DNA of 63,681 nucleotides, the filler included, from Hausera hauseri (Eukaryota), in assembly GCA_046269625.1 (NCBI GenBank). It is 12 parts of 12 records of this genome, joined end to end, with 100 filler letters (N's around TTAATTAATTAA, not from the genome) between each part and the next. Parts side by side here need not be neighbours in the genome. Positions count along the whole stretch, not along the records: positions 40,946 to 49,292 come from JBJURY010677662.1; 11 more parts are not named here. The stretch is one strand, 5' to 3'. Below, piece by piece: positions 10,377 to 59,914 of this stretch (position 1 is its first letter; each line of letters starts with the position of its first letter). The position numbers and the translations under genes were made by a program. The notes under the pieces were generated by a model. It did no database searches, was not told the origin of the DNA, and was given only the letters and a program-made list of their open reading frames with translations.

Positions 10377-10499
10377 NNNNNNNNNNNNNNNNNNNNNNNN
10401 NNNNNNNNNNNNNNNNNNNNTTAATTAATTAANNNNNNNNNNNNNNNNNNNNNNNNNNNNNNNNNNNNNNNNNNNNCATTAGAATATCAAATACAATAG

Positions 10500-10889: not shown

Positions 10890-10921
10890 TTCCGCCGCCA
10901 GAGCTTCCGGCGAGTCCTGGC
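10880..10921 (+). promoter_or_regulatory. -1 ribosomal frameshift signal (A AAA AAC plus pseudoknot), copy A
   Basis: In-phase heptamer 10880-10886 immediately before the gag stop, a 6-nt spacer, stem cgccg/cggcg, and loop ccag pairing with downstream ctgg. Confidence 0.75.
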
Positions 10922-14523: not shown

Positions 14524-14899
14524 NNNNNNNNNNNNNNNNNNNNNNNNNNNNNNNNNNNNNNNNNNNNTTAATTAATTAANNNNNNNNNNNNNNNNNNNNN
14601 NNNNNNNNNNNNNNNNNNNNNNNGCCTTGGTCTCAATGACCTGGAAGGGACTTCTTTTGGCTTTTCCCTTTTCAGGGTTAGCAACGTTGGTTACGTATTG
14701 TAACCCCAGATTCTATGAATGTAGGCGTAGCCCTTTAAGCCACACCTATGGGTTTATCCCTGCGCTTCGCGCCAACACTGAAAACTTCAAGTCCACGCCC
14801 ACCTGCTGTGGGCCACACCTCGGTCTACTATAAAAGTCACCCCTGACCGAGACACTGCTCCCAAAAAAATTTTCAAACCAACTACGAAGACTTCAGAAC

Positions 14900-16471: not shown

Positions 16472-16498
16472 CGGTGTGCAGGGGATGCTTTCTGCAAC

Positions 16499-27329: not shown

Positions 27330-30300
27330 TGATTACTTCTCAGGATTTCGAGGAGAAAATTGGCTGAACTGTAATTGAGTTGACCGACTGCGACAAAATG
27401 TCTGCTACTAAATTTTCGGTGCTGAAATATATTTCATAGAAAAACTAAATGTCGACAGGTATGATATATGTTGTTCTTGTCTGAGTGATGGCTGTTTTAA
27501 CGTCATAATATGAAGTAGAGGTTTATTGTCGGTTTGGATGACAAATTGACGTGATAGAAGCAAATGCTTGAAATGCTTTACCGCTAGAACTATGGCCAGG
27601 AGTTCACGATCGATTGCTGAGCATCAGCTTTCTGGCTGCGTTAACTTTCGAGAATAGAATTCTAACGGCTCATCAATACCATCGTATATTTGGTGTAATA
27701 TCGCACCAGTGGCTGTGGTGGATGCATCGGTGGTCAATATTAGTTCCACGTTGGGTTTTGGAAAAGCAAGGATTTCAACGGTTTTCAGACCTTTACGAAG
27801 GTGATCAAATTGGTTTATTAGATCAGGATTCCAGTGGATTAATTATCTTTTCTTCTCGGATGAGAGGTGTGCGAAAGGTGCCGTTAGCTCGGAGCAGTGT
27901 GGTACGTATTTGTGTACGAAATTCAGTGTCCCTAGAAAACTCCTCATGTTGGTAGTAGTAGTTGGTAATGTCACAATTTTCAACTGTTGTAAGCGATCAG
28001 GCAGGAGGAATGATTATAGGGAGTAATTATGTGGCCTAAGAAGTTGATGCATTTCTGGAAGAAATTAAATTTGGAGAAATTAATCTGCAGGTTGCTTTGA
28101 TGTAATCTGCGGAAAATAATTCGGAGATGCTCATGATGTTGTTTGATGGAGGTGGAAGGGACTGGTATGTCATCTATATATGGATGAGCAAAATCAAAAC
28201 CTGAGAGTACGGTGTCAATATGGCGTTGAAAAGTCTGAGATGCTCTACGTAGGCCGAAAGGCGTGAAAATTTTTTCATAAAGGCCAAAAGATGTGATGGC
28301 AGCAGTTTTTGAAATGTCATCAGGTGCAAAAAGAAATTGATGGTAGGCCTTGTGCAGATCAATGGTAGAATAGGTATTGGTGTTATTGAGGCTATGAAGG
28401 ATATCCTTAATGAGTAGTAGTGGATAGGGAGCTGTAATGGTCAGGTTGTTTAATTGACGATAGTCGCCACATGGCCTATAGGTACCATCTTTCTTTGCCA
28501 CTACATGAAGAGGAGAAACCCCAGGTTAATTCGATCTCCGAATGATGGCAGACTTTTCCAGTTTATTAAATTCCTGTTCCACAGCTTTACGTTTGCATGG
28601 AGACAAGGATCAGACCTTTTGTTTAATAGGCCTCTGGTGCTCTATGATTATATGCTGATAAGTTGAGGATGGCGGCTTGAAGTTGATATCCCTTTTGACA
28701 TGCGTAAACAAGACGTTGTGATGTATGATTTAAGATCGGAGTCTAGAGATAAGAATTGTTGAGGCATGTCATCAAAAGAAACAGTTGAGGTAATTGACGA
28801 AAAGCAACTGGCATTGCCACTGTTAACACACAATTTGGATTTCTGTTTTAAAATAGATTTGTGATTGTTATTCATAGTTGAAGGATGCCGACTTTATCAA
28901 AAGTTTTGTCAATAGTTGACGAGGCGTTCAACATATTTACAGAAAAGTGCCATGAATTATTCTCTAGATTGTCTGTGAGAAATTTGATTGAATTTGCTAT
29001 CGAGTTCCTGCGCAGAAAACAGCCGTATTTACAATCAACCAACGGATCATGTGCGGCCAGGAAATCCGAGACGATTATTGGTGAATTTATGTTAGCGATG
29101 AGGAACTTCCAAACAAACTTGTTCGGTAAGTGATGGAAGGTAAAAGTTAGCTCTGTGGTACCAACAATGCGTAAAAGCTGCTCACTGGCTGTGAAGAGTT
29201 GAGGAGAAGAAAAATTATTGTAAGTTGGAGTGAAAGATAACGGTAGAAGGGAAAATGTGGCTCCAGAGTCAATGAGAAAGTCTATATTTGATGAATTGTC
29301 AGAGAAGATTGCAGCTTAAAACAGAAATACTGCAGAGGTGGTATAAAGAAGGCCAGAAGAACGCAATGCATTGCCTATACCAGAAGGTGCCGTTGAATCT
29401 GGCGGCGTTGTTAGTTTTTTGAAGGATTTGAAGAAGAAGAAGAAGGGGAGGAAAAAGGAAGAAATTTATTTTTGTAATATTTGCAACCAGGCACTCATAA
29501 TTTTGCCTGTGACTGGTACTTATTATGGTAGATACAAATAGGGTTGTCGTTGAAGTACTGTTGTATGATGTTGTCTATCGAAGGATCCGTGATATGGAGT
29601 ACAGCTTCACAGAGTGTTTTGTAAGGTGTCGAGTACTGGAGCAGTTTGGAGATGTTACTGATCCGCTGCTTGACATTATCAGGCAGAAGAATTAAAAGAC
29701 TATTGGCTCTCACGAAAGAGTCAGTGATGTTGATAGATTTTAGCCACTGTTGGTGGAATTGGAGCCATGGTTTACTGGAATTGTTTTCGTCAAGAAAAAA
29801 TCCACAAAACGTAGATTTATCAAAGCTCGTGATTGTTGAGAGTTTGGTAAACGATAGATATTGCATGTACTTGTAGATTTATCATTCGAGAAAGATGGAT
29901 TTGGGTCCGATTCGCCCCGAAGGCGGACGTGGAGCGTGAAATGGATGATTGGTGACATGCGAACAGTAAAAGGGAGTCGGAAGGATGTATAGTAAAAACT
30001 TGATATGTGAAGTAGAAGCCGGAAGTATTAAATAAAAAGGATAAAGAGTTGTATTAGAGCTGTGATGTGTCGTTGAGTGGAGCTCTTATGGTTTTATATG
30101 CCTGTGATTGCTAAAACAAGAAAGGGAAATTGCTGTTAGGTAATATGAGCAAAAGGTTGGTATGCGCGGGGGCTTGGGCGGTTTTCGTTTGGACAAGAGT
30201 TTTGAGCGTGCCACCCGGGGAGTTGTGGCAGAATGATCGCACACGTGAGTGCAAATCAGCAAAAAGAATCTCACCAACCTGTTTGAATATTTTTGGTGGT

Positions 30301-36163: not shown

Positions 36164-39100
36164 TCACATGTACCTACTTATTCCATCAATGATCTCGAAG
36201 GATTTGGAAGAACTGAGGAAATTAGCAGATGGTTGATTGATCTTTAAGACTTCAGATGAGAAAATCGGCTCAACTGTGAGGGATCCAACCGACCTCGATA
36301 GAAAGTCAGCTACCAAGTTATATGTGCCCAAGATATATTCCAAAGCAAAACTGAACGTAAACAGGTATGATATATGTCTCTCTTGCCTTGGTGATGGCTT
36401 TTTTAACGACATGGTGTGCTGCAGAGGATTATGGTCAGTTTGAATGACGAATGGACCAGAGAGAAGTAAGTGTTTAAAGTGTTTTACTGCCAGAACTATG
36501 GCAAGTAACTCATGGTCAAATGTGGAGTAACGGCTGTCGGGTTTTGTAAGCTTCCGAGAGTAAAATTCTAATGGCTCGTCGACTCCATTAGAGACCTGGT
36601 GTAGTACAGCGCCAGTAGCTGTGATTGAGGCATCGGTTGTCAGAATAAGATCTGCCTTGGGTTTGGGATAAGCCAGTATTTCTACGGTTTTAAGACCCTC
36701 ACGCAAGTGATCAAACTTGGTTACCAAATCAGAAGTCCAGTGAATCAACTGCCTCTTTTTCCAGATGATAGATGTGCGAAAGGTTCTGTAAGCTCAGAGC
36801 AATGTGGTACGTATTTGTGGATGAAGTGGAGTGTGCCTAAGACACTTCTCATGTCCGTGGTAGACGTTGGTAGAGTTATGTTCTTCAATTGTTTTATTCG
36901 ATCCGGTTGTGGAGAGTGGCCGTCAGGAGTGATGACATAACCTAGGAAATTTACACGTTTTTGAAAGAAATGACACTTGGTGAAGTTGACTTGCAAATTG
37001 ATATGATGTAATCTGTGAAAAATAATACGAAGGTGTTCTTGATGTTGTTTGACAGACGTAGAGGCAACTAGTATGTCATCAATATATGGATGAGCGAAAT
37101 CTAGGCCTGAGAGTACAGTATCAATGTGCCGTTGGAAAGTTTAAGAAGCACTACGTAAACCAAATGGCATAAAGATATATTTGTAGAGGCCAAATGGAGT
37201 AATAATTCCAGTTTTTGGAATATCATGAGGTGCAACCGGAATTTGATGATATGCTTTATGCAAGTCATTTGTGGAGTAAGTGTTAGTGTTTGTAAGGCTG
37301 TGCAGGATATCATTTATGAGAGGTAAAGGATAAGCATCCATGACTGTTAGATTATTTAACTGCCGATAATCACCACATAATCTGTCACAACATGCAAAGG
37401 CGAAGCCCATGGTGATTTGGATCGTCAAATAATGCCCGCCTTTTCGAGTTCATTGAACTCTAATTCAACAGGTTTTCGCCTGCGAGGTGAAAGTTGCCTT
37501 ACCTTTTGTCTAATAGGTCTTTGGTGTTCGGTGACTATGCGGTGATATGTTGTAGAATGCGGCTTGAAATTAATGTCCTTCTTAAGAGTACGGGAACAAG
37601 AAGTTTTAATGTAGGATTTAAGGTCAGAACCCAACGATAAAAATGATGATGGCATATCATTATAAGAATCAGTTGCGGTAATCGACGTAGAATGACTAAA
37701 TGCTTTATTAACGACATTTGGTTTAGCCGAATGTTTCAAAATTGATTTGTTTCTACTTGACGAAATTGAAATATTGATGAAATGTTAAATGTGTTGTTGT
37801 CAACCGATGAACAGGATGTCACATTGGCATTTGAATGATCTGAGAAAGACAAAGTGTCCGACTGGTCGTTTGGTGCGTATTTGTTAGAATTTGCAGTGAA
37901 GTTTCTGCGCAGGAGTCATTTATGCTTGCAGTCGACTAACAAATTGCATGCAGCCAAAAAATCGGAGCCTATTATGGGCGATCTAATGTTGGCTATGTAA
38001 AAATTCCAGGAAAATTTCCCTGGTAGGTTGGAGAATGTGAATGTCAGTTTTGTAGTACCTACAATGTTCACATGTTGACCACAGGCAGTGAAAAGTGGAG
38101 GAGAGAAAACTGTATTAGATGTAGGAGCGAAAGACAAAAGAAGAAGTGAAAAGACAGCTCCTGAATCGGTAAGAAAATATATTTGTGATGTCTCCACATA
38201 ACATTTCAGCTTTCAATAGAAAGACTGCAGAAGCGGTGTTGAAACGGCTAGTAGTTTGAACGATATTGCCTGCACCAGAATGTGCCGTGGCATCTGGTGG
38301 CATTATTTGTTTTTTGAGACTTGTTGGTAGAAAGAGAAGGAATGATGAGGCCGCGGAGGCGAAGCAGATGGAGAAGAACTAAAATTCCTTTTATAATGTT
38401 TACATCCTGGCACGCATAACCTAGACTTGGACTGGTATTTTGCGTGATAGATGCAGATCGGATTGTCTACGGCATATCGTGCATCGTAGAATGTACAGCC
38501 TAAAACACATTTCCTTGCATCTCTGAAAAATTTGTTGTGATAAAAGCACGTCCTTTTACCATCTCTAGATTTAGAACGAGAAGAGTGCCTAAAAAACTGC
38601 GATTGCGAGAAATACGATTTTTGCTTCCTCGAGGCACGGGTAAGTCACTGAATTGGGCTGTGATCGCAGAAATTGCTTGTTGGAGTGGGTCGAACTGTTT
38701 CTGCATCATGTGCAGTTATTGTGCAAATAAAGTGTTATCTGGCAGTGTGTGAGCAGTTGCTGCGACTACTGGCTGCGAGTTGTTACACTGCAGAATATCA
38801 AAGCTTTTATCTGCCAACAAAGCGAGTTTTTCAAGGGCAGTAGAGTCATCTACTGCAGTAAACAAAGCTCGAATGGAGGTTGGCAAAGACGAAAGAAAAT
38901 ACCGACAAAGAAGTTCGGCATTGTTTATAGGAGTCACGCCTAAAGAGCTCAGTTGTGAGATGGCAATTTTAAGGAAATCCAATGGTTTTTTATTTCCAAT
39001 GAAGTGTTCATTAAAATACTTCTGGATTATTCTGTCGATGGAAGGGTCGGTGATATGTAGAACCGATTCATACAACATATCATACGGGCTTGAAGAAGAG

Positions 39101-39800
39101 AGTATGCCAGCCAGATTACTGATCTGCTGCTTGATGTTATCTGGAAGTAATAGCAGCAGACTGTTAGCTCGCAGAAAGGAATTTGTAACATGATTGGCTT
39201 TGAGCCATTGAAAGTGAAACTGTAGCCAAATTCGGCTCGAATTCGTTTTATCTAGGAAAAAGTCTGTACAGGGAAGGTTTGGAGATGTTGATGGTGTGGG
39301 TTCGACAGGACGACGATCAGATCTGATTTTTGTTAAAATTTCGGCAGAAGGATCAAGGTCTGATCCACCACGGACGCGAAAATGGACAGTGAGAGTGATG
39401 GAATATTTCTCGGGTGCAAAAAATTAAAGAGTCGTAAGGTTGCAAAGTTAGATTATTGTGCCTAAAATAAAAATCGTAGAAGCCGAAAAAAGGACAATTC
39501 AGTATAAATAATATGAGCTGTTTGTTTGTGCATAACCCTTAATGTGTGGACATGTTTATTATTAGAAAAGATGAGAAAAGAAGGGGACATGGCGCAACGG
39601 GGGCGGGCACGCTCGGTCTCTCAGCCAGAGAATTTATTGTATTTCGACAAGAATTATTAAAACCAAGATGACTTCTCGATGACATTTTAAATGATTCAGT
39701 GTATGAATAACTGTCACAATTACCTTGTGTTATTTCGTCGGAACTGGTCGAGCAATAAGATGTCGGAGTTGAGTACCCCGAATACTTCGTAGAGATAGGA
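36164..39800 (-). mobile_element. Gypsy CsRn1-like retrotransposon, degenerate copy C
   Basis: gag with two CHCC motifs (CFYHNKFFRDARKCVLGC; CIYHAKYQSKSRLCVPGC), A AAA AAC at 38315-38309, PR FLTDSGA, RT CGDYRQLN/MPFGL/YIDD, and RNase H ORF 36164-36748. Confidence 0.92.
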
Positions 39801-40845: not shown

Positions 40846-41059
40846 NNNNNNNNNNNNNNNNNNNNNNNNNNNNNNNNNNNNNNNNNNNNTTAATTAATTA
40901 ANNNNNNNNNNNNNNNNNNNNNNNNNNNNNNNNNNNNNNNNNNNNAAGATAACACTTGTCACAGCATTGGCAACGGTAATTTGCTAGGGGGGAAGAGGAG
41001 GAACTGTTAATTTCTAACGACTCTATTGGCTGCGCATTACAGGTTGATGTTAAAAGTTA

Positions 41060-43330
41060 AGTTTGCGACCGGGTGGATGCATGGTAGTACTATGTCTAGT
41101 GAGGCAACCCCTTGTTTTAAACTCCAGTGAACAAATCAGACATTTGTGAATCACTTGTGGATTTACATTGTCTGTCGTTGGTTCTGCACCTGCACTGGCT
41201 TCGACTGGTTTAGGGATAATAGAGGCTAGCAGGGGACGTTTCTGCCGTATGTGCCGAGCTAACTAACCAGCGGTCTTATACTGTTTGGCACAAACTCGAT
41301 ATTTGTTCTTTGCATGCTCCTGGTCGGGTGCTAGGGCACTCTGTCCTACTACCGTTGTTTGTGAATGAAGTGAGGCCAGTGGAGCGCTCTGTCTAGGAAC
41401 ATTTTGTTCGCTGTCTGATTTTACCGCAGTATTTGCCGATGTCTCCTCATTAACGCGTTGATCATCTTTTATGGCATTCTGACGCTCCCTTCCTATATGT
41501 CTGGTGACCCCTCCGTTCGTCTTGAAACAGCGTAAACATTACGGACAATGAAGGCTATCAACCACTCTCTCCCCGTATGTGCGGGGGTGCTTTGCTACTA
41601 TAGTTGTGTGTGCGCGGCTAGCTTTGTAGCAACTTCCCTCGGACAGAGAAGAGGAACTGTTTTTGCTAAGTCAGTTGATGGTGACCGGAACAAACTCGCT
41701 TGCATCTCCTCTTGTATTTGAGCTGACACATCTGGCTCATACTGTACTCGTATCGTTTCTGGTAGGGACTGCATCTCCGCCCCCCATCATCCGGATGCTC
41801 TGGGATGATTCTCGATGGCTCCAGGGATGGTGGGGGAAGATCAGCCTGTGTGGGCACGAGTGCAATACTAGAGCTAGCATCATCCTGATTTTCAACTCTG
41901 GGTCGTTCGCCATATAGTGTGTCATCAAGAATGAGCCCAAACAGTGCATCAATATGAGATGCCGCCGAGTGCGCAGACAGGTTCAGTTCCTCGGTCGCAT
42001 AATCATCGAACTCTATGGGTAGCAACGACGGAATTATGCTATGTAGAATGGGGGTAGCCCCCCAAGTTTAATTGTTGCTGCTGAAGAAGAAACATAGCTC
42101 CACAAAGCATCAAAACAGCTCTCTTCAAGATATATCAACATACGACATATCCCGTTGTCGTCAGCATCATCCTCACCTCTCAGCACCATCATACTACGGC
42201 GCAAGGGCCTCCGTGTCACTATCATGGACGGGTCATGTTGTTGCTAAGTTTTTGGAGATGCATGTGGTGGTGTTGCCGAAGGGCTCCTCACTGTCGGCAT
42301 CATAGGACTAACCACTTCAGCAGGGATCAACGGTGTTTTCAGAGGGACACTAATTTCAACATCTACATCTCGTTCAGACTCGACTACTACTATTGGAGTT
42401 GCAGGAGCACATGATGGCTGATTAGCATGAACAGTGTCATGTTCCTTTGTATGTCTAGTCAATCAACCTTTTGACCTAAATAGATGGTGACATAATTAAA
42501 AGATATATATAGGTCGTTCAGCAGGCTCATGTTCCACAGTCCGTTCGTCCGCACTATTCCGAGAGCGTCTTTCAGGAACATGGACTGCGCATTGAATAGG
42601 TCTGCCGAGACAATCACAGGCCGTTTGTACGGTTGGGTGTACTACATTATCCAGCGACGGGACTATTGATATTGGCGAGGCTGCAAATATTTACTCCTCG
42701 CTACAGTTCTCCTCTACCACTGTGGGTACAATTGCCACCATCTCACTATCCGTGACATCATCATCGCCATTTACTACAGGACAAAAAACTACCGGGTATT
42801 GTTATCGTATGTGGTTCACCAATGACATAACTGATTGGAAGCTCTTCAAACGTTTAGGAGAGATGCGACGTCCATTAGGAATGCTGGGGCTACGGGACAT
42901 TTCTTGACAAGCTCACGCACCTCGTTGCGTGTCATTCCATGAAGACGAACAATGTGGGCTATTCTTGCATCACGGTTATTGAACACTATGTTCCGATCTG
43001 GGCACGCAATTGGGTCGCTAGCTCTACTAAGTCGACATGTCGCCAGAGCAGATATACGGGCTTGTTTGGGGTTCTTTGTATGGCACCACCTGCACTCTTT
43101 TGAGAATGACTTATCAATCACCCGTGAGAATCAGCCGAAATGACGCGACGTACCACTACGGAATTGAGATATGAGGCATTCCTCAGTTCTAGTCAACTGC
43201 GGGGCATCCTCAATGTGTTTATACGTCTGTGTCAGGGTTGTGCGCCTTATAGACTAGCGCCAATGGTGTCCACGTCCTGTCGACCGGAAACTCTAGCCTA
43301 CAGCATGAACTCTTTTCCGGCATCATGATA
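41060..43330 (-). mobile_element. Degenerate 3' part of an ingi/L1Tc-like non-LTR element (DIRE-like)
   Basis: LTRTEECLISQFRSGTSRHFG*FSRVI..ECRWC followed by several C2H2-like fingers (e.g. CLICSLEFKTRGCLTRHSTTMH; CP*CLRCFKTNGGVTRH), as in ingi C-termini. Confidence 0.65.
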
Positions 43331-43820
43331 ATCGCTTCAAGCCAAAGAAGTATTAACTATGACTGATATAACACCCAGGCCCGGGGAGTTGAATGTCCTT
43401 CCACACCCAGGAAGTATGTACGCTCCTGGGTCGATGTTGCCCACACTTTAGCACGGGAACGACGTCATCAAAGGTAGCCGTCTTTGCCGACACATGATTC
43501 CCTTTTCCCACCGTGAGTCATCAGTGAACAACCTCAAACCCGGAATATCAACAGGCGCGATTGACATAGGAACAACAGTACCAAGAACAGCAAAAACAAT
43601 AACACAGTTAGCAATAATTACTCTAAGGGTAGAGCACTAACAACAATAACACTACCAAAAAGAATAATAATCATAATAACAACAGACGCAATAAAAGGTG
43701 GAATAACCGCAATAAAAGCGAACGAAATAACACACGTGGGCAACAATACATCCCCACCAACAATAGATTTAGTGTGCTGCCCTGTCAGCAGCAGGCACTG
43801 CACCCAGCACTACCCTACGG

Positions 43821-44990
43821 GTGCCTACCACTACAGTTCCTCAACCATCTGTCCGCCCCTCAGCTAAACGAGGGTGGAGTCAACGTAGAATGTACCTCCA
43901 CATGGCAGATATCGTAGCTCTTGAGATCAAATTTCTCACATGGCATCACTCCAAAGTTAGTAAACATTTCTCCACGGCCACAAAGCCGTTAATAGTTCTT
44001 AAGCATACATCACAACCTCATCGAGAAGAACACTGTATGACTAGTAATACTGTGGCTCAGGCTGCCCCTTGCTCATCTACTGAGCAGCTTGAGACCGTGT
44101 TCACCATGGAGCAACCCATGGTTAGCATAGCACCTGATAATGGTGCTATGCAACAATTAGCATTAGCTCGGGCGGAGTGTATCCGCCTAGATGAAGAATT
44201 GGCACAGAAGCGTGCCTTTGTAGAAAGCGAAACTGCTAGGCTTTCTACTGAAATTGAAACTGCTCGTCTTGCGGCAGAAGCTGAGAGCGCTAGTTTGGCT
44301 CTCAAATTGGAGACTGAGCGTGCCTTTGCTCAGCATACCTCTGCCTGTATTGCATCTGAAGTGGATTCAATACGCCTCTCTGCCGAGGCAGAGAAAAATA
44401 GACTTATTGTAGCAGTCAACAATGATCGTGTTTCTGCCGATCAAGAAGTTGCTCGCATTGCCTCTGAGGTGGACTCTCAACGGGCTAATGCTCTCATAAT
44501 TAAAGGAAACCTAGAATTAGAGGTCTCCCAGGCCAGGGCGCAATCTCAATGTGAGATTGAAAGCCTGAGCCTTTCTTTAGTACAACAACGTCAGGCTGCT
44601 GCACAGCAGAGTGTGCAGTTTGTGTCACAACAAGGGACTGTGACACAACATAGTATCGCAGCCTGTAGGATTGAAACGGTAGTTTCTAACACTACCGTTT
44701 CAGATAGTTCGTTTGCTGCTGCCAATTCCTACACAGGACCATCACCAGCTCCTTCAATTGCTCCTGCATCTGGTATGCTCTCGGTTGTGCCTTCTATGGC
44801 ACCTAGTCCTGCCCCGAGTTGCCCTGCACCTGCTAGCAGCAACAACCCTTTTGCGCAGGCTGCGCAGGCTGCACAGGGAGCATCTAGGGATTCCGAACGC
44901 CCTTCTTTTGTTAGCATGTTTGGTAACGTCCGGAATTCTTTAAGTTGGTCCAGACCCCCACAAGCTGGCTCTCAGGGGTCAAATTTTTAG
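43821..44990 (+). CDS. ORF1 of an ingi-like LINE: long coiled coil plus A/P/S-rich tail
   Basis: 389-codon open frame (ATG candidates include 44038) with heptad-rich LARAECIRLDEELAQKR...LELEVSQAR; ends at the slippery site overlapping ORF2. Confidence 0.75.
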   Translation: MPTTTVPQPSVRPSAKRGWSQRRMYLHMADIVALEIKFLTWHHSKVSKHFSTATKPLIVLKHTSQPHREEHCMTSNTVAQAAPCSSTEQLETVFTMEQPMVSIAPDNGAMQQLALARAECIRLDEELAQKRAFVESETARLSTEIETARLAAEAESASLALKLETERAFAQHTSACIASEVDSIRLSAEAEKNRLIVAVNNDRVSADQEVARIASEVDSQRANALIIKGNLELEVSQARAQSQCEIESLSLSLVQQRQAAAQQSVQFVSQQGTVTQHSIAACRIETVVSNTTVSDSSFAAANSYTGPSPAPSIAPASGMLSVVPSMAPSPAPSCPAPASSNNPFAQAAQAAQGASRDSERPSFVSMFGNVRNSLSWSRPPQAGSQGSNF

Positions 44991-47900
44991 AGCTGCGCTT
45001 CCCAGGAGGGCGCACTATAAGCTGCTCTGGGGGCCGGCAGAGGGATAGTGAGTTGTCTCCCTCTGGGTCGCCGGCTCCCGGTAGGAGTCACTCTAACCTG
45101 GTAGTCAGTCATGCCGAGGCGGTGCCTATACCTCGGCGTCGGGTTAGAGTGTTTAAAAGGGGACCAGCACATCCCCGACTGCTTATTCTCAACTGTCAGA
45201 GCTTGTGTATGTTTAAAGCTCGATTGATCGTGAAATTAGCACGCGATCACAATATACAGTTGATAGTGTTGTCGGAGATTTGGCAGCCCACCTCGGACGT
45301 CATTGCCCATCTTAAATTAGCTGATATTGATGGGATTTGGACCAGACGTCCAGTAGGTAGAGGTGGTGGTACTGCGTTTCTAGCTGTTCGCCCTTGGACT
45401 GTACAGGGCTGTCCTTCCCCTAGTGATCTTGGCCATATTGAAGTGACACAGGTCAAGATTGTTCCACCGGGGGATATTGATAGTAACATATTTGCTGGAG
45501 CTATCTATGCGGCTCCATATCAAATCAGCCCTGAACAGTATCAGAAGGCATGCTGCACGACATCTGGTGATCCTTTGGCTTTTGTTGCTGGCGACTTCAA
45601 CGCTTCTCATAAACTCTGGTCTAATTCACAGGAAACTTTACGTGGCCAGACTTTACTTGAAGTTGCTCGCCAGTTGGGTATGGTGATTAAAACACCACAA
45701 GCGCCCACTACTACTGATGGTAGCACGATTGATTTTATTCTGCATAGCAAGGGAATTATTGTAAACAATCTCATCTCCCTTGGAACTGTCCGGGACAATA
45801 TGGTTCATTTCCCGGTCATGTGCACTGTCGGTATTGGCGCCGTCCCCAATAGAAAGGATGTGGCATCTCGGCCCCCAGTGATTGCCTGGGATAACTTGAC
45901 TGCTTCTCATTGTGAGCGTTTTACTGCTACGATTGAAAGTTATCTTAGCTCTTATGCTCACCAGGCAATGCCGGTGGACTGTAATGTACTGCACGATCGC
46001 TTAATCAATGCGATTCGTGCTGGTCTGCGTACTTTGCCACGCCGTCGTCCTAAACCTGCAGGATCAAGGCCACTAGGATGGTCGTCACCGGAGAAAGCTC
46101 TGCAACAACGGATCCGTTGTCTTTCCCCTTATGATCTTTGGGGGATATTGCAACCACGTCCTGGGATTCATCCTTGTCCTCCCGTTCGTGAACTTGCGCA
46201 AGCGTTTGCCAGTACTTCTTGTACTTCAACCCCAGTTCTTGCGCATATGGTGTCTGTGGATCCGCCTCCTCCTGTGACGATAGAAGAAGTTCGTGCAGCC
46301 ATTAAGCGATTACGTGTACGCGGTTGTGATGATATTGATGGAATACCGGTCCGGGTTTTCAATCTTTTGCCTTTGGGTGCTGTGGATGTTCTGGTACGAC
46401 TATGCTCATTGGCTAATACTGGATCTGTTCCTCGTCGTTGGCGCGACTCTGTTGTGCATCCCATCCCGAAAGCTGGGGAAAGGGACTGGTTAGATGTAAA
46501 GTCGTGGCGCCCGATAGCTATCACATCACTTGTATCGCGTATTTGGGAGCATATTGTGTTACTCCGCATGGAGCGTTCTACTTCGTCCATTAATTCGGAC
46601 GTTCAATTTGGTTTTAGGAAGAAACACTCTGCAGCTGGTCTGTTGCGTATGCTTCGCACTGACCTTACATATGCTACTGCATTCCAGGAAAAAGCTGCTG
46701 CTTCTGTTTCCAAAAATAGACCAACACTGTCTCATAGAGCGATAGTAGCTGTCTTTGACTGTACGGCAGCCTTCAACTCTGCTTCAATTGACAGTATTGT
46801 TCTTATGCTGAAGAACCTCCGTCTCCCTGAGATTGCGGGAATACAGGCCTGGCTTGGCGGTCTTACCGCCCGAAGACAATGTGTGCGTGGAGACACGGTG
46901 TGGCTAAACACTACATCTGGTGTGCCGCAAGGATCTGTTCTTGGACCTGCCCTGTGGAATATTGTCCTTGATCCCATTCTTGCAAAGGTTAGACACCCAC
47001 CTTCTGGTGTTAAGTTCCACCAACATCGGCTGTACGCCTTCGCCGATGATATACTTGCTTTTGGCTCTGGTTTGGATGTACATGCTACTGCACAGGGCAT
47101 GGATCAATGGTGTTCGCTTATCGAAACATCGTTAGCTGAGATCCATGTTACAGTTAACCGCGACAAGACTTCTTTTCACACTGTTGCCACTACTTATCGG
47201 AAGAACACGATTCCTACTGTTGAGCTCTGGAATCGGTCTGTTACAGTTTCTCCGTTCAAGTTCCTTGGTGTTTGGTTTGGTGAGCAACTCAGTCCTCTTG
47301 TCCAATTTACAGAAGTTCAGAAGCGTGTGTTACCAATGCTATCACAGCTAGAGGCCATTTCAACGTTGGTGTCTCCTGCCCAGTTACGAATCATCTATAT
47401 GTCATATATTCTACCGTTGTTTACGTATGGATGTTCGAGCTGGGTAAACATTGGATGGAATGCTCCCCCACCCCCAGTCGAGAACTCCGGGGTTAAACAT
47501 GCTGGAGGGTTCAAAGGACCAAGAATCGCTGCCAATACGTCTGCTCACTTTGGCATCGGAAACCTGGATGCTCTTGAGATCTTACACAGACGCGCTGCCC
47601 GCGCAATTGCTGGTACGGTAGCTACAGCTTCGAATAACTTATGTCTTAGGGAAGCTGGTCTTCGGTCATTAGAATGTACCCTCCAAAAAATTGCATGTAG
47701 GGAGGATGAGGTCACCTTTAGAGTTAATAGTCGCGCAGCTTTACAACCTGCTGCTGCTAATCCTGAACCTGTACTTTGCTGCTTGCCCTATCATCCCTCA
47801 TGGGCTGGTAGCTTATGTGATCGTGTCTCATTCTACTTCGACATGATCCCACACATCTCAGCATCTGCAACCGCTGAGAAACGGTATCAGGACTCTATCA

Positions 47901-48817
47901 GGCGTATGAATGCTGCTTTCGCCACCTTTAATGGCCATTGTCTACTACTGGCAACCGATGGCTCTTTAAGTTCTGAGCGTGGCGGGATTGGTGGTGCCCT
48001 CTTATACAACTTGGTCCTCCCGGGTGTTATTATTGGACAGGCGTATCGCAATGCTGGCAAACTTGCTTGCAGTTACTCTGCTGAACTGCGTGGAGCAGAA
48101 GCTGGTCTCTTTGACCTCTACGATACTATTGCTCAGTCCCCATTACGTAATCTCTGCTGGGTGACTGACAGTCGCAGCCTGGTGCAAACTTTGGCACAAG
48201 GGTGTCTATCAGTTTTGAGTTTTGCTGAGGCTGCTATTTGGCATCAGTTGCTTAAGTTGGTTGACTGTGGTTTCCACATTACTGTGGTATGGGTATTCTC
48301 ACACTGTGGAATCACAGAAAATGAGAGTGTTGATGCAGCTGTATCTGGAGTGGAGACGGCTAATTTGCCATTGGCTCCCGTGTGGTGGGTTGATGCCGCA
48401 CGGTCGCGATACCAGACTGCGTATAAGAAATACGCAGAATTATTAGAAGTAGATGCAACGGTGCCCGATAGGACGCTAGCACCGTTGAAAATGACTAGAT
48501 GGGGTCCTCCTAACTTTGCCAGGATTCTTTCCTGCCTTCGTAGTGGGGTGTGGGGTGCACTAGGTGTTCGGGATGAGCCCTGCCCTTGTCCGTTGTGTGG
48601 GACCCCTTCTAGTTTCAATAGAAGAGCGGGGATCAAACACATGTTTGTTTGCCCCTGTTCGCAGGCTTTCCGCCCCAGTGTTCGTGGGAGGCCTGTTGTA
48701 GAAAATGATTTGTGGAGTACAGAGCCCGTGGTACTGAACTCGATTGCTCGCTTCGCGCTAGACTTTAAGGGGCTGCTTAAAGGTCGAGGTGGACAATCAT
48801 CCACAATCATTTTATAG
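44945..48817 (+). CDS. pol: Non-LTR retrotransposon ORF2: AP endonuclease, RT, RNase H and CCHC (ingi/I group), intact
   Basis: APE LNCQS, LSEIW, AGDFNA, TIDF; RT WRPIAITS, QFGFR, GVPQGSVLGP, FADD, KFLG; RNase H ATDGS, AGKLACSYSAE, VTDS, WVFSHCG..NESVD; CPLC..H...C. Confidence 0.95.
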   Translation: MVQTPTSWLSGVKFLELRFPGGRTISCSGGRQRDSELSPSGSPAPGRSHSNLVVSHAEAVPIPRRRVRVFKRGPAHPRLLILNCQSLCMFKARLIVKLARDHNIQLIVLSEIWQPTSDVIAHLKLADIDGIWTRRPVGRGGGTAFLAVRPWTVQGCPSPSDLGHIEVTQVKIVPPGDIDSNIFAGAIYAAPYQISPEQYQKACCTTSGDPLAFVAGDFNASHKLWSNSQETLRGQTLLEVARQLGMVIKTPQAPTTTDGSTIDFILHSKGIIVNNLISLGTVRDNMVHFPVMCTVGIGAVPNRKDVASRPPVIAWDNLTASHCERFTATIESYLSSYAHQAMPVDCNVLHDRLINAIRAGLRTLPRRRPKPAGSRPLGWSSPEKALQQRIRCLSPYDLWGILQPRPGIHPCPPVRELAQAFASTSCTSTPVLAHMVSVDPPPPVTIEEVRAAIKRLRVRGCDDIDGIPVRVFNLLPLGAVDVLVRLCSLANTGSVPRRWRDSVVHPIPKAGERDWLDVKSWRPIAITSLVSRIWEHIVLLRMERSTSSINSDVQFGFRKKHSAAGLLRMLRTDLTYATAFQEKAAASVSKNRPTLSHRAIVAVFDCTAAFNSASIDSIVLMLKNLRLPEIAGIQAWLGGLTARRQCVRGDTVWLNTTSGVPQGSVLGPALWNIVLDPILAKVRHPPSGVKFHQHRLYAFADDILAFGSGLDVHATAQGMDQWCSLIETSLAEIHVTVNRDKTSFHTVATTYRKNTIPTVELWNRSVTVSPFKFLGVWFGEQLSPLVQFTEVQKRVLPMLSQLEAISTLVSPAQLRIIYMSYILPLFTYGCSSWVNIGWNAPPPPVENSGVKHAGGFKGPRIAANTSAHFGIGNLDALEILHRRAARAIAGTVATASNNLCLREAGLRSLECTLQKIACREDEVTFRVNSRAALQPAAANPEPVLCCLPYHPSWAGSLCDRVSFYFDMIPHISASATAEKRYQDSIRRMNAAFATFNGHCLLLATDGSLSSERGGIGGALLYNLVLPGVIIGQAYRNAGKLACSYSAELRGAEAGLFDLYDTIAQSPLRNLCWVTDSRSLVQTLAQGCLSVLSFAEAAIWHQLLKLVDCGFHITVVWVFSHCGITENESVDAAVSGVETANLPLAPVWWVDAARSRYQTAYKKYAELLEVDATVPDRTLAPLKMTRWGPPNFARILSCLRSGVWGALGVRDEPCPCPLCGTPSSFNRRAGIKHMFVCPCSQAFRPSVRGRPVVENDLWSTEPVVLNSIARFALDFKGLLKGRGGQSSTIIL
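44981..45033 (+). promoter_or_regulatory. Putative -1 frameshift signal: A AAT TTT plus H-type pseudoknot
   Basis: In-phase heptamer 44981-44987 directly before the ORF1 TAG, with ORF2 in the -1 frame. Stem 1 tgcgctt 44994-45000 / gggcgca 45008-45014; loop (c)ccagg pairs with tctgg(g) 45026-45031. Confidence 0.75.
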
Positions 48818-49019
48818 AAAAATTAGATTTTAGTGTGGTGTGGGGTAGCACCTTTTTCCTTAGATTCGTTTTCTTTCTCCCATAATGTACCCACCATTAT
48901 GGGCTCTCTCATCATTCTCGTTTACCTTTCTTCTTGTTGTTGGGTCGAAAGCAACTGTTTATTGTTGAGTTTATAGTAGAAAGAACACAAAGAGTCTAGG
49001 CTAAACCGCTATAATGCAA

Positions 49020-49292
49020 GTCATCTCCATCTCCATCTTCTTCCGCTTATCCGTAGTCGGGTCGCGGAGGCAATAGGTCCAGGAGAGAAACCCAGACCTC
49101 CCTCTCCCCGGCGACACTTTCCAGCTCATCCTGGGGGTTAGAGAGGATACATAGTCCCTCCAGCGAGTCCTGGGTCTTCCCCGGGGCCTCCTACCAGTGG
49201 GATGTGCCCGGAACACCTCTAAATGGAGGCGTAGAGGAGGCATCCTTATCAGATGCCCGAACCACCTCAACTGACTCCTTTTGATGTGGAGG
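49020..49292 (-). mobile_element. 3' end of a teleost Rex3/Expander-type RTE LINE
   Basis: RWFGHLIRMPP..EVFRAHPTGRRPRGRPRTRWRDYVS with a GATGGA-repeat tail. Confidence 0.85.
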
Positions 49293-49580: not shown

Positions 49581-50321
49581 TCAATATTTGCAACGTATGC
49601 GTGCCTGTTGTTCACCCCTCTCCATATATTTTCTAACCATTAGCAACCCTTTTGAAATTGTCGGTATACGCATTTTGTCCTCTTCTTCTCTTTCCAATTT
49701 TGTATAGTACACATCTTTCCTGTGTCCTCCATTCTGACATCTATTACATTTTATGTTTATGCAGTTTTGTCTCATGTGCCCTTGCTGACTGCACCCATAG
49801 CATTTTATGGGTTTCCTTTCCGGGCAATTTCTGTTAATGTGTCCTTCTTTCGCGCAACCAAAACATTTTGGTATTTGTTGGAGGTTGCACGTCCTGGTTT
49901 TATGCCCGTCTTTTTGGCACGACCAGCATTTCATCCTATTCTTTGCCTGCCTATTGTGCAGTTTGAAATCCCTCCATTCTTGTCTTGGTTTGTCAAGTTT
50001 GTGCACCGCCACATCCCGGTAACTCCGTTGATCCTGTTTAGTGTATTCTTTGACTGCGTTCTTTTCTGTCTTTTTTGCCACTTCGTAAACTTTCTGTATT
50101 TTCTCTTTGATTTGTTCTACGTTCTTTTTGTCACTGCGGTAGATTTCCTTTCGCATCTCCGGATTGTTGCGACAGTGGATCATCAATTTCTTTGTTAGAG
50201 CTTCCATTGTTACTTTGTGGTTAAAGATTTTCTTTGCCAGCTGTTCAATTTTGTTGATGCAAGCATCCGGTTGTGACGCCACCATTCTGTAGTCCAAGAC
50301 CTCCTGCAGATTTCCAAACAA
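49581..50321 (-). CDS. gag: Gag-like protein with four CCHC zinc knuckles
   Basis: CWSCQKDGHKTRTC, CFGCAKEGHINRNC, CYGCSQQGHMRQNC and a degenerate CNRCQNGGHRKDVY. A related fragment lies at 53330-53410. Confidence 0.75.
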   Translation of the reverse strand: MFGNLQEVLDYRMVASQPDACINKIEQLAKKIFNHKVTMEALTKKLMIHCRNNPEMRKEIYRSDKKNVEQIKEKIQKVYEVAKKTEKNAVKEYTKQDQRSYRDVAVHKLDKPRQEWRDFKLHNRQAKNRMKCWSCQKDGHKTRTCNLQQIPKCFGCAKEGHINRNCPERKPIKCYGCSQQGHMRQNCINIKCNRCQNGGHRKDVYYTKLEREEEDKMRIPTISKGLLMVRKYMERGEQQARIRCKY

Positions 50322-51299
50322 ATTTGTGGGTTATGAAAAGGCACTTAGAAACCAAAGGAAATTGGAGCATTCAGATATTTTCTTGCCTTTTCCATGTCAA
50401 CGTACGCGAATTGAACCGAGCTATGTATACTGTGTTAAAAGACACTCGCTATCAAACGAAATGTGAATTGTTACTTGGAGTTAACTATTAACATAGAGTA
50501 ACCATCGAGATCTGATACAAAACTTTTGGGGGACACTTCATTTTTGCCGAGCCGCATCTGGATTTTTGACCATTTACTTCTTAGTACAGCTACTTAAAGC
50601 AGTAATTTAAGCGGACATAAATGGTTACGACATATTTACATTGACGAGATTCTCGTATAAAATTTTAACTGCGACCATAGCACCCTTTGGTACATTCCTA
50701 AAAGCCCACGACGAAAATAGATGGAAGACCGATGTAGTACGACATGTAGGCTACCATAACCAAAAACGACGGAAAAGACCAATATATAAATACGGACGAA
50801 AATTCATTAATCCTAGGACGCGAAGAAATAACTCAGATGATGACCAGCCTAAGTGAAGAGACGGCGTCTTGACAATAAATAGACATAAAGCATATACTAC
50901 TATACAACCACCATTACCTATGTTATCCGCAACGACACAAGTATATAAAGATTGTGATAAACGTTCAACTGTTTCGTTCTAAACAGAAATATATAAGAAA
51001 CCATTTAATTTTGAAGACTCTTAGGAAGTAACTAAACATTATAGTGTATTACTAAAAATGCACGAAACAAGAAAAACGTCCATTCCTTACGGACGTCAAT
51101 CAATTGATGACCATAGAATACTTATTTCTCAAGAATGCATAGAGCGCAAAAGCCAGATAGACATTCTCGAGAGGCCAAGAAATGCATACCTTCAGCGTAT
51201 CAGCGCCAGAAATCAGATTCCACGGATGTAAAGTATTAGTAACCAAACATCCTAAATTTGTACCAAATTGCTACGGTAGAGTAACAGAAATAAGGTACG

Positions 51300-55956: not shown

Positions 55957-57714
55957 TCATTCGGTTCTGTGTTCAGGTGAAAGCGTTGTACCATTTGCAG
56001 AAACCAACCTCCCCAAGAAAGAGACTTGTGTACGAACTGCTTGAAGTTTAGATTTACTAACTTTGAAACCTGCGTCATGCAGGTGAAGCAGGACAGCCTG
56101 TGTGGCTGTAAGACAGTCGTGTGCTGTTTCAGAGGCTATCAGTAAGTCATCAACATACTGTAGCAAAGTGGTGCCCCTGGGGAGTGGAAGCTGTACAAGA
56201 ATGTTCTTCAAGACTTGATTGAAAATGCCTGGTGATAGTGCAAAACCCTGTGGTAAGCGAGTGTATCTGTACTGACAACCGTTAAATGTGAATGAGAAAA
56301 TGTCACGCAGGTGTTCTGACAGGGGTAGGCAAAAGAACGCATTTGCCAAGTCAATGCAGGTGAACCACCTCTGCTGTGGTGTCAGCTGTGTTAACGCAAC
56401 ATAAGGGTTTGGTACTGGCGAAGTGGGTGTCTTAAGTATGGCATTGATTGATCTAAGATCGTGTACCATCCTATACTTCCCGGTACCTGCCTTCTCTACA
56501 GGTAGGATGGGAGTATTCCAGTCTGAGTGTGAGTGTTCGAGGACTCCTGCTCTCCATAAACCTTGGACTGTGTCGGTCAAACCTTGTTCTGCCTCGGGTT
56601 TGTGAGAGTACTGATACAACCAAATGGGATCATTGTGGTTGAGTTAAAATTGGATTGGTGAGCATTTTACAAGACCTACATCCTCAGGTCCCTGGGACCA
56701 AAGAGTGGGAGGAAGTGTGTCTAACATTGGAGGAACATCTGAATGGTCAGTTTTTTCTCTGCCATGGTCTCTGGAGATCACCTCATGATCTAGCTTACCT
56801 ACATCATGAACATTAAAGTCAATGCTGTAACAATCGGTTGATGGTGAGTAAGCAAGCTGTGGTATTTGTGTTGGGGCCCAATCTGTGGCAGAAATAGCTG
56901 CCTTCACCATTGGGCCCAAGTCTTTAGCCTGATGTGTGGGAGCTAAAGCTAGTGAGACATGTGGGGCTGCCTCTGACGACATCCTGTACCACTCTAATTG
57001 GGGTGGCGTGAGGGTGACGTGAGAAGCCACGCCTTGTGGCCCTACTATGAGCCGGTCAGATGCTAGTGGCCACTCAGTATCCTGCAAGTCCTGTGCAAAG
57101 TGCTCCTTGTAGCAATCGTCAGAGTCACGGTCATAAAAGAGAGTGACATGGAGGGGATCGAGAGGTTGGACATAGGGACGCAGAGCATCCAGCCATGGCT
57201 TCCACAACAGGTAGGCCGAGTAAAGTCCAGAGTGGTCAGGTGTTTCAGGACACAACAGCGCCCAATAGATGTCGGCTACCTCCTCCTGTATTGGTTGCAC
57301 GAGACATTGTGATGTTAGAGAGGAGGGAGAGGCAGAACAAGTCCAGGTTACACCACTTGGCAGAGTAAAACGCAAACCAGTTTGTTCATACAAAATTGTT
57401 GCCCCGAGTTTCTTTAACAAGTCTCTTCCCAACAGGTTGACAGGAACATGTGTAGACAAGACAAATGGATGTGTCAATGATTGAAGTCCCGCTGTCACCA
57501 GGAGGGGTTCTGTTAGAGACAGTTTCTGTTGTACCCCAGAGAATCCAACCACAGAGACAGTGTCTGGTGTGGCATGTTCAGAAAACCCCTGATCATTAAG
57601 GGTCGAGTAGGTGGCTCCTGTGTCCACAAGGAATGAAAGGTCTTTATTCATGACCTTCATTCTCACCATAGGGTCTGCTCCTCCCCCTACGGTGTGATTA
57701 CTCTGTGGGGTGTG
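55957..57714 (-). pseudogene. pol: Pol: protease, 2H phosphoesterase and RT; nonsense TAA at 56646-56644
   Basis: FLVDTGA..NLLGRDLL, LHVTL and PHVSL, YVDD. ORFs 56644-57669 and 55957-56619 are in the same frame as gag. Confidence 0.9.
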
Positions 57715-59460
57715 TCATTGCTGGTAGTATCCACCTGGTGTTGTACGAGGGGGATCCTGCAGTCCAGGGTTAGGTGCCTGTGGCGCCATCTGGTGGTTGG
57801 GAGCCGAGTGAGGATGTGCTCCTCCTCTTTGGGCATGAGCCTGCTTGTGGTAACAGTCACGGGCCCAATGGCCTGGCTTCTGACAGTAATGGCAGACATC
57901 TTGTGCTCTGCTTCCCTGTGTGTAACCACGACTGAAGCCCCTGCCCCGAGAACCCCCTCTTCCTCCCCACTGTCCTCTAGATCGACCCCGAGGATATGCA
58001 ACAAGAGGTGGGTATTGGTTGGTTGCAGGACACTGATAAGCAGTTTCAGCCTGCACCATCTGCTTTGGCTCTTTCTTGGACTGAACTACGTCTCTGGCCT
58101 GTTTCAACTGCAGCTTTAAGAGCTGAGTTTGCATGTCTTTTAATTCTGAGGAAGTTGTGTTCTCCTCATCTGCAGCACACTGTAAGTGGTGGATAAGGTG
58201 ACGTTCCCATTGGGTGGCGTCTGCGGTGGGCAAGTCAGGATTAATTTTCATCGCTTTACTGACAGCTGCTGGCACACCATCAAGTATTGCTTGTCTGAAA
58301 AAATACTTCTGAGTGGCTCCTTGGCCATGGCAGTGAGTTCTATCGTACCATTCCTGTTTACATAAGTCTAAGTACGCAGTGGGGTTCTGACCTGGCTTCC
58401 AGGTGAGCTTAGGGACCCCTGTACCCTCTGGGAGGGGATAAGCCTGTCTAAGGGCGACGGCAAGCCGTTGATACTGCAGCGACATGCAAGTTGAGTCGGG
58501 AGTATGGCGATCCCAACCAGCTGCTTTTTCAATCTCGTCCATCCTAGTGGAAGTTACACATCTTCCCAAAAGTGCTCTCATATCTCCAACAGCTAAGGTA
58601 ACACCCTTAGTAAGGGAGTCCACAGCGTTCAACCACTTACTTCCTCCTTCTGTAAGGGGAGGGAGTTTGTCCACTAACGCCTGTACGTCGCCCAACGCAA
58701 GAGGTTTGTAGCGTATCTGATTTCCTGTCTGCAATAGGGGATAAGAACCAGAACTGGGCAGGGCAACCAGAGAGGGGTCTACCTCTTCTGAGGGGAGGGA
58801 ACCACGATCTGAGCTCTTATCCACGTAAGTGGATTGAGGAACAGATTGTGCATGTGGTGGGAGAGTTGCCAGCATGTCGGATGTAATTCTTATCGACTCT
58901 GGCCAGAATGGATTGTGTGTGTTACGAGGGTACTGTTGTGGTGTGGCGGAAGGTGATTGTTGTGTATAGACCGCCCTGTTATCCCAGCCCTGCAGACCAG
59001 CGGGCGTGGGACTGTGCTCCACCTCCCCATGAAAACTGAGGGGAGGTGGTCCCAATGATGCAGGGCAAGGAGAAGCGGGCAGGCGATGTGGAGCAATGAT
59101 CGGTGGACATGACTGTGGAGTGGTTGGCTTGATGATATACGGCTCTATATCTGAAGACGTCAGAGATACTTCTCCATCATGTGCTACAGGGTTGTGTTGC
59201 TGAGCTGGGGCAGGAGACTCCTCCCTCTGCTGCAAGGGGGTCTCTTCCCCTACCTGTATCATGCCGTGCTTTATATGATATACTGGATACATTCCCTTAG
59301 AGGGAGGTGCTGATGGGCTGCTGTTTGAGGTGTAAGGAGGGGGAGCTGAACTAACCGCTTCCTCCACTTGCCGCTCTATCTGCAGTAAATGTAATACTCC
59401 CTGAGCAACAAAAACCAGTTTCAACCACTCCCTTCTTTCACATTCAACCGTCTCTTTCAA
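57715..59460 (-). CDS. gag: Retroviral Gag, 5' truncated
   Basis: PPPY late domain, capsid-like region, RG-rich segment and CHYCQKPGHWARDC. Confidence 0.9.
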   Translation of the reverse strand: MKETVECERREWLKLVFVAQGVLHLLQIERQVEEAVSSAPPPYTSNSSPSAPPSKGMYPVYHIKHGMIQVGEETPLQQREESPAPAQQHNPVAHDGEVSLTSSDIEPYIIKPTTPQSCPPIIAPHRLPASPCPASLGPPPLSFHGEVEHSPTPAGLQGWDNRAVYTQQSPSATPQQYPRNTHNPFWPESIRITSDMLATLPPHAQSVPQSTYVDKSSDRGSLPSEEVDPSLVALPSSGSYPLLQTGNQIRYKPLALGDVQALVDKLPPLTEGGSKWLNAVDSLTKGVTLAVGDMRALLGRCVTSTRMDEIEKAAGWDRHTPDSTCMSLQYQRLAVALRQAYPLPEGTGVPKLTWKPGQNPTAYLDLCKQEWYDRTHCHGQGATQKYFFRQAILDGVPAAVSKAMKINPDLPTADATQWERHLIHHLQCAADEENTTSSELKDMQTQLLKLQLKQARDVVQSKKEPKQMVQAETAYQCPATNQYPPLVAYPRGRSRGQWGGRGGSRGRGFSRGYTQGSRAQDVCHYCQKPGHWARDCYHKQAHAQRGGAHPHSAPNHQMAPQAPNPGLQDPPRTTPGGYYQQ

Positions 59461-59914
59461 CTTCCTGTACTNNNNNNNNNNNNNNNNNNNNNNNNNNNNN
59501 NNNNNNNNNNNNNNNTTAATTAATTAANNNNNNNNNNNNNNNNNNNNNNNNNNNNNNNNNNNNNNNNNNNNGACAAAATTCTGTTACAAAAGATTTAAAA
59601 GTGGTGGTAACTGCAGCGGTAGAGTGTGAGTGGTATTAGTAGCGTTTGTTTCTATCGAACGCTGTGGTGAGTAGTAGGGTATGCAGATACTGAAGCGGAT
59701 TTCAGGATGTAGTATGCGGCGTTTAGCAAAATATTCAGGGGGAGGTGGCGTGATGCCTGTCAGGTACCCTGGTAGGCAAGGTGAGACAATTTTTGTATTT
59801 TTTTTTGTTCTTGTTAAATAATAGTGCTTTTGTATAATTTTATGCTTTGATAGGTAATTGTACTTGTATTTTGTGTATTATTTTATGTATGTAGGTTATC
59901 CGGATAGGTGGTGG

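Follow-up and report, generated by a model that had tools for sequence, protein, structure and literature searches.

Contig 40946-49292 (JBJURY010677662.1) of Hausera hauseri assembly GCA_046269625.1 carries an apparently full-length, intact non-long-terminal-repeat (non-LTR) retrotransposon of the Ingi/L1Tc kind, in which a first open reading frame (ORF1) and a second (ORF2) meet at a slippery heptamer followed by a predicted pseudoknot. We explain this arrangement best, and with good confidence, by programmed -1 frameshifting that yields an ORF1-ORF2 fusion. The contig is part of a window of 63,681 nucleotides, filler included, which consists of contigs joined by N-spacers; the other contigs hold mainly retroelement pieces, and all positions given here count along the window. 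The element spans 43780-48822 (5,043 bp, plus strand), with the non-LTR domain order APE-reverse transcriptase (RT)-RNase H-CCHC. The original prediction had seen the element and placed it at 43821-48817; these limits are corrected here, and its description of an intact two-ORF architecture stands, with both frames open and the APE, RT, RNase H and zinc-knuckle domains intact.

Probable frameshift junction

ORF1 ends in TCA AAT TTT TAG, which a -1 slip converts to AAA TTT TTA GAG in the ORF2 frame, as had been predicted. Signals for -1 frameshifting are defined by an X_XXY_YYZ heptamer, a 5-9-nt spacer and a downstream pseudoknot (PMC3542737, in part). The features at the junction are as follows.

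44927..48817, plus strand: ORF2 (-1 frame), 1,276 codons from the shift site; fusion of 1,593 aa when counted from 44037
44981..44987, plus strand: slippery heptamer A_AAU_UUU in the ORF1 frame, fitting the X_XXY_YYZ definition
44988..44990, plus strand: ORF1 stop codon UAG, abutting the heptamer (sequence)
44994..45031, plus strand: predicted H-type pseudoknot; stem 1, 44994-44999/45009-45014; stem 2, 45001-45006/45026-45031
45029..45079, plus strand: long hairpin directly behind the pseudoknot, with 3 nt in common with stem 2, about -32 kcal/mol
44964..44977, plus strand: strand able to pair over 14 bp with 45025-45038 in competition with stem 2; all standard pairs, stacking -28.6 kcal/mol

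Measured stop to stop, ORF2 has 1296 codons and overlaps ORF1 by 64 nt. The spacer from the heptamer to the stem 1 region is 6 nt, within the 5-9-nt range. An H-type pseudoknot is predicted at this distance, as originally proposed, with stems of 6 + 6 bp, loops of 1, 2 and 11 nt and a stacking sum of -24.4 kcal/mol; stem 1 has 6 bp and not the 7 bp that had been given, and loop 1 is 1 nt long when all six stem-2 pairs form. In a scan of 4,850 element positions the site scores best (0 of 4,829 other positions are as good), and its score is reached by 23 of 2,000 dinucleotide shuffles of 50 nt and 30 of 2,000 of 75 nt. Six canonical heptamers occur in the element; ORF2 has none in its coding frame, and the only other one that is in frame, at 44846, has no pseudoknot. 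The junction sits exactly between a disordered ORF1 tail, predicted from the single sequence and likely to be a linker within the fusion, and the endonuclease. Behind the pseudoknot, the most stable 50-nt window among 2,490 in the element begins at 45030. The competing 14-bp helix is present in the minimum-free-energy fold of 44960-45060, and it would already be opened by a ribosome standing at the heptamer. The base-pairing potential is shown; that the pseudoknot forms and that ribosomes shift here we infer.

ORF2 has no ATG until past the first endonuclease motif, in agreement with the original prediction: the first in-frame ATG lies at 45209 and the motif LNCQS at 45188, while the only other ATG within 44927-45215, at 45111, is out of frame. 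The Asn of LNCQS presumably corresponds to N17 of the Zorro3 endonuclease, where the mutation N17A drops retrotransposition below 5% (PMC1965478). Because no ORF2 AUG precedes the first motif, frameshifting is, a non-AUG start aside, the sole route to an endonuclease that contains it. Two other candidates were rejected, namely an ordinary AUG start at 45209, by which the first endonuclease motif would be lost, and stop-codon readthrough of the murine leukaemia virus (MuLV) type, since the zero frame closes nine codons past the UAG and never reaches ORF2.

Non-AUG initiation belongs to a quite improbable alternative, in which two real ORFs are translated separately and ORF2 is made by re-initiation or internal initiation at a non-AUG codon (CUG 44993 or 45098), with the structure aiding coupling as in SART1. 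There are ten near-cognate codons in the ORF2 frame upstream of the first motif, CUG 44993 lies two bases past the ORF1 stop, and SART1 couples its ORFs by a stop-start arrangement plus a downstream structure (PMC3894237, in part). The SART1 AUG, however, overlaps the stop, and there is no such AUG here; this alternative also leaves a canonical heptamer at the exact frame and spacing unexplained. Fusion at the RNA level, by polymerase slippage that adds one base in some transcripts, is highly improbable. The junction is indeed an A/T run (A3T5), but the run is short, and such slippage has no need of a 3' pseudoknot at ribosome spacing.

Several observations weigh against a dedicated frameshift signal. 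With the pseudoknot scored by a home-made stacking sum, and with loop limits chosen after the site was known, 4 of 600 G+C-matched window positions are as good under narrow limits and 10 of 300 under wide limits; the site ranks 2nd or 6th, depending on these limits, among the 489 heptamers on both strands of the window, and 1 to 5 of the 488 others have an equal or better pseudoknot. The nested fold of 57 nt is unremarkable (z -0.18), other pairings being preferred. The element, and with it the lineage that had been proposed, is so far represented by one copy. P0009, the closest full-length relative among the matches listed, consists of a single ORF that includes a 2A motif, and 16 of the 43 proteins of the RT clade (below) with an endonuclease match have an in-frame N-terminal extension of at least 100 aa.

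These last points bear on a further alternative, which we consider unlikely: a single-ORF element of the Ingi/L1Tc type from which one base of the T run was lost, in the copy or in the assembly, with heptamer and pseudoknot coincidental. Because in-frame extensions are common in the clade, nothing would be unusual about a continuous ORF this long; the relatives have a single ORF each, 1,450-1,750 aa in length and variably extended, and the fusion here would be at least 1,593 aa. Ingi-clade elements are moreover described as lacking ORF1 (PMC3894237, PMC3708506, both in part), the restored T run would be among the two longest homopolymers of the element, and the terminal duplication likewise shows T indels. 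Against a broken ORF stand the simulated one-base deletions in ORF2, of which 10 of 3,500 leave a canonical heptamer in the overlap and 1 of 3,500 a heptamer with an abutting stop (0 of 35 for deletions in homopolymer runs of at least 4). A broken ORF also requires two further coincidences: the best pseudoknot of the element, with odds of about 1-3% when the nulls are least favourable, and a break that falls at a domain boundary. The continuous ORF would itself retain the heptamer before a pseudoknot, shifting into a dead frame. Over 4.9 kb the frame is broken nowhere else, and the contig lacks a 2A motif in every frame. A systematic homopolymer error is disfavoured because the other 11 homopolymers of at least 5 in the element break no frame. 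The alternative is kept alive because the relatives are single ORFs and a single copy of the element is available. Given the deletion odds, the pseudoknot odds and the domain-boundary position combined, a chance origin of heptamer, pseudoknot and position is unlikely, and programmed -1 frameshifting is retained as the preferred explanation.

Under programmed frameshifting, ribosomes would start at the ORF1 AUG and the majority would stop at UAG 44988, giving free helical ORF1 protein in excess. A minority would pause at the pseudoknot while the Asn and Phe tRNAs occupy A_AAU_UUU, slip back by one base and produce an ORF1-APE-RT-RNase H-zinc-knuckle fusion of 1,590-1,640 residues. The frameshift rate would thus set the ratio of ORF1 to enzyme, a role proposed for 2A in single-ORF relatives, and the two flanking helices may tune that rate. 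The ORF1 protein may coat RNA or oligomerise. If this is true, the element is a long interspersed element (LINE) that makes an uncleaved Gag-Pol-like fusion, an unusual way for a LINE to ration its reverse transcriptase, and it would provide a direct test of the need to throttle ORF2.

The two proteins and their relatives

The features of the two proteins are listed below.

43890..44990, plus strand: ORF1, 366 aa from the first AUG; alternative starts at 43902 (362 aa) and 44037 (317 aa)
44139..44630, plus strand: predicted long ORF1 helix, Ala/Glu/Gln-rich, 164 residues (single-sequence AlphaFold2, predicted local distance difference test (pLDDT) 93-97 over most of it)
44631..44980, plus strand: predicted disordered ORF1 tail, Ser/Pro/Ala-rich, essentially without secondary structure (pLDDT about 40-50)
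45176..45815, plus strand: APE endonuclease, its first motif 5' of the first AUG (Pfam Exo_endo_phos, E 4.7e-10)
46274..47275, plus strand: reverse transcriptase, FADD, with an L1Tc-like insertion before the first catalytic Asp (Pfam RVT_1, E 2.1e-26)
47945..48340, plus strand: RNase H, four acidic residues present (alignment with relatives, Atlas)
48587..48652, plus strand: C-terminal zinc knuckle C-x2-C-x12-H-x3-C (motif position)

ORF1 is a real coding sequence (stop to stop 43773-44990, 405 codons) because it has a bias to T-ending codons like that of ORF2 and unlike that of the off-frames: T occupies 0.47 of fourfold third positions in ORF1 (n=171, from 44037) and 0.43 in ORF2 (n=655), compared with 0.18-0.29 in the off-frames. 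Since the bias is weaker before 44037, on few codons (0.32, n=19, for 43890-44037), the ORF1 start is left among the three candidates. AlphaFold2 without an alignment predicts one helix between disordered ends. The original prediction had called this a coiled coil, which finds no support: the sequence has no heptad or hendecad hydrophobic periodicity (measured at 3.4-3.8), 180 of 300 shuffles being as strong, and no fold in the PDB matches it. Prediction of the helix as a trimer (3 copies, residues 30-202) gave no answer (score 0.00) and is neutral. The absence of RRM and CCHC motifs that had been reported is borne out, with no Pfam family at E<=0.01 and no CCHC spacing; up to E 10, Pfam gives one match only (E 2.5). 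Homologues of ORF1 were found neither by word search nor in Atlas, the best score against 155 collected proteins (E 0.026) indicates no homologue, and ORF1 is unlike all 16 N-terminal extensions of the relatives. A structure search (Foldseek against the PDB) returned a single match, at E 10.

The RNase H domain of ORF2 is recognised through its relatives. No Pfam RNase H match is obtained in ORF2 itself at E<=0.01, while its D, E, D and D columns are nearly invariant in the alignment (A1), the aligned relatives P0008 and P0023 match Pfam RNase_H, and the best look-alike in Atlas is an RNase_H cluster (0.96).

Relatives were collected by protein search against 50%-identity representatives, and among the best 150 of 19,049 matches the best long ones are 34-42% identical to ORF2. 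A profile built from ten relatives and ORF2 added P0156 (EukProt record GILI01008089.1), 40% identical over 99% of the query. A word search with ORF2 gave five distant matches, and a sequence search of the PDB gave five as well, namely three R2 retrotransposon proteins and two generically named RTs. From a scan of a genome collection, 80 LINE-like loci in metagenome-assembled genomes were fetched, at 22-30% identity, none of them matching the RNase H or ORF1.

In the RT tree, which holds the 213 of 244 proteins with enough RT, ORF2 groups with elements that mostly bear RNase H, in a clade of 65 rows (support 99). In an IQ-TREE run on 42 hand-picked rows, whose outgroup is non-monophyletic and whose root is therefore unsure, it falls in a 7-row clade (99/99) with P0009, P0156, P0007, P0008, P0006 and P0013, and also within a 27-row clade (98/95); neither tree includes a named trypanosomatid or Ingi-clade reference. 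ORF2 thus nests among the 2A-bearing, RNase H-bearing Ingi-type elements, in keeping with the kinship first suggested. An endonuclease match is present in 43 of the 65 clade proteins that were examined, and six of the 43 carry a 2A-like motif by pattern. Twelve of the same 43 begin at least 15 residues inside the endonuclease; LINE ORF2s annotated from an internal AUG may thus miss their true start, although truncated contigs would explain these twelve equally well.

The label "ingi-like" holds for the relation to Ingi/L1Tc-type elements, but the RT insertion is nearer to that of L1Tc than to that of ingi. From the Q-x-G/A-F/Y motif to the first catalytic Asp there are 51 residues in ORF2, and the distance is at least 45 in 49 of 58 measurable clade rows and in 22 of 142 outside the clade. 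The same distance is 55 in L1Tc and 35 in Tcoingi, as counted by eye in the supplement of PMC3708506 (in part). Like Ingi-clade elements, this one has APE, RT and RNase H in one polyprotein, but those are described as a single ORF without ORF1 and the element has two ORFs; a 2A-like motif is absent from all six frames of the contig. The element is related to Ingi/L1Tc elements but departs from them in these two described features, and is therefore not filed as a member of the ingi family.

Among the relatives, P0018, P0021 and P0022 (and more weakly P0011 and P0060) have in common an in-frame module at the N terminus (E 7e-9 to 3e-5 between pairs) that consists of a C2H2-like finger followed by an N-I-G-x-S/T-C motif and has no Pfam match. 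We take the motif to resemble the Cys box of USP/C19 peptidases, and the module is possibly a protease or deubiquitinase carried by LINEs.

Ends of the element and neighbouring sequence

The element is bounded by the following features.

43762..43779, plus strand: left copy, either of an imperfect target-site duplication or of a shared target motif; it aligns best, locally, with the 30 nt that follow the A tail
43780..43889, plus strand: presumed 5' untranslated region, 110 nt, without an upstream AUG (AUG list)
48818..48822, plus strand: A tail of five A's, directly 3' of the ORF2 stop (sequence)
48821..48840, plus strand: right copy of the imperfect duplication (sequence match to 43762-43779)

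The two copies of the duplication, 18 and 20 nt long, differ by two T indels and one mismatch. Their score is equalled in 1 of 2,000 shuffles of 43300-44036 and 51 of 2,000 of the whole upstream contig, and by 8 and 22, respectively, of 1,021 other 30-mers. Because three differences in about 19 nt fit poorly with intact ORFs, the repeat may alternatively represent a motif preferred as a target, on a contig in which repeats have collapsed. The element starts with CCCTG, which we take to be similar to the start of Pr77, a likeness so far unconfirmed. For an HDV-like (hepatitis delta virus) ribozyme, an Rfam scan of the contig was negative, its single match being a chance one (snoU13, E 1.9), and our own descriptor, run without a positive control, gave 0 matches. 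A 3' hairpin (48879-48903, perfect 9 bp, 60 nt past the ORF2 stop) was considered as an RT recognition signal and rejected, because a correct duplication would place it beyond the end of the element. No second copy of the element is found within the window (blastn, tblastn).

Just 5' of the element, an AAC-rich stretch (43565-43770) is open in two plus frames and encodes Asn-rich peptides with no family match. On the minus strand, 42879-43262 and 41479-41589 hold a degenerate remnant of another Ingi-type element, its C-terminal part, which is oppositely oriented and contains stops (tblastn, P0043 E 9e-9 and P0109 E 3e-8; the zinc-finger piece to P0048, E 0.008). At 49001-49292, also on the minus strand, a C-terminal coding piece ends in a (CATCTC)n repeat (49022-49038); we assume it to be the 3' end of a teleost RTE (Rex3/Expander-type), an identification unconfirmed by any tool. 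If it is right, either the L1Tc-like element sits in fish DNA or the contig is a chimeric join.

Elsewhere in the window, 14834-19930 contains a gag-like ORF, an RT/RNase H ORF (16812-18905) and an overlapping long ORF with a tyrosine recombinase-like end, a layout we presume to be of DIRS type. Within this region lies GGGUUUU (19511), the heptamer whose pseudoknot scores highest in the window when the limits are narrow, probably by chance. On the minus strand, 55957-59523 holds endogenous-retrovirus-like gag (CCHC), protease and RT frames split by in-frame stops. AT-rich, fragmented pieces of LTR elements (protease, RT, RNase H, integrase, CCHC gag) lie on other contigs at 9186-13307, 27980-28525, 36164-39423 and 49581-50330.

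Comparison with known systems

No recognisable RNA-binding or trimerisation domain is present in ORF1, unlike the known LINE ORF1 types (RRM, CCHC, PHD, esterase, L1 coiled coil). The element is like L1Tc of Trypanosoma cruzi and like ingi, Tcoingi and Tvingi in its APE-RT-RNase H order and its length of about 5 kb (PMC12278014, PMC4035085, both in part). Trypanosomatid ingi and L1Tc elements are described with Pr77, poly(A) and duplications (same sources, in part), and the Ingi clade as having 2A (PMC3894237, PMC3708506, in part). The element here differs in its separate ORF1, the lack of a 2A motif, a tail of only five A's and an imperfect duplication, and no Pr77/HDV-like ribozyme was found by Rfam or by the descriptor run without a positive control.

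The closest relatives, P0156, P0006, P0007, P0008, P0013, P0009 and P0011 (34-42% identity), have the RNase H and C-terminal motifs in common with it where aligned. P0009 (34%) differs from the two-ORF element here in having a single ORF, whose 2A motif lies about 100 aa ahead of the endonuclease, and P0011 has a differing in-frame extension of 274 aa. For the remaining five, the 5' ends are absent from the protein records.

Frameshifting in LINEs is less novel than the original prediction implied. Dictyostelium TRE5-A and TRE3-A are said to require a -1 frameshift (PMC5911963, a review, in part), and the two ORFs of Drosophila R1B share 14-59 bp, the overlap being in the -1 frame (PMC2718515, in part). 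Like the element here, these are non-LTR elements with two ORFs, the second of them in the -1 frame; the relevant portions of the sources give no slippery site, pseudoknot or measurement for them. The gag of HeT-A needs a frameshift (PMC5009743, in part), and for Paramecium elements +1 shifting, re-initiation or readthrough is suggested (PMC5405496, in part). Portions of three more papers (PMC7175516, PMC5443660, PMC5006619) hold nothing further on non-LTR frameshifting beyond HeT-A. A literature search, with subscription papers largely outside its reach, returned no non-LTR element with a heptamer and pseudoknot and no two-ORF Ingi element. TRE5-A and TRE3-A belong to the L1 clade and R1B to the R1 clade, other than that of the element.

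In its heptamer, spacer and downstream pseudoknot the junction is like the gag-pol signals of retroviruses and LTR elements (PMC3542737, in part), but the downstream ORF here is a LINE polyprotein without a protease, so that the ORF1 part would stay attached. How LINE ORF2 is translated is described as an open question, and 2A has been proposed to replace ORF1 as the brake on ORF2 in the Ingi clade (PMC3894237, in part). An element that is closely related to 2A elements and has both an ORF1 and a frameshift cassette fits this idea from the opposite side. It appears fairly likely that a single small clade of L1Tc-like elements has switched between two recoding devices of viral style, with 2A in some members such as P0009 and a new helical ORF1 with a heptamer-pseudoknot shift in the element described here.

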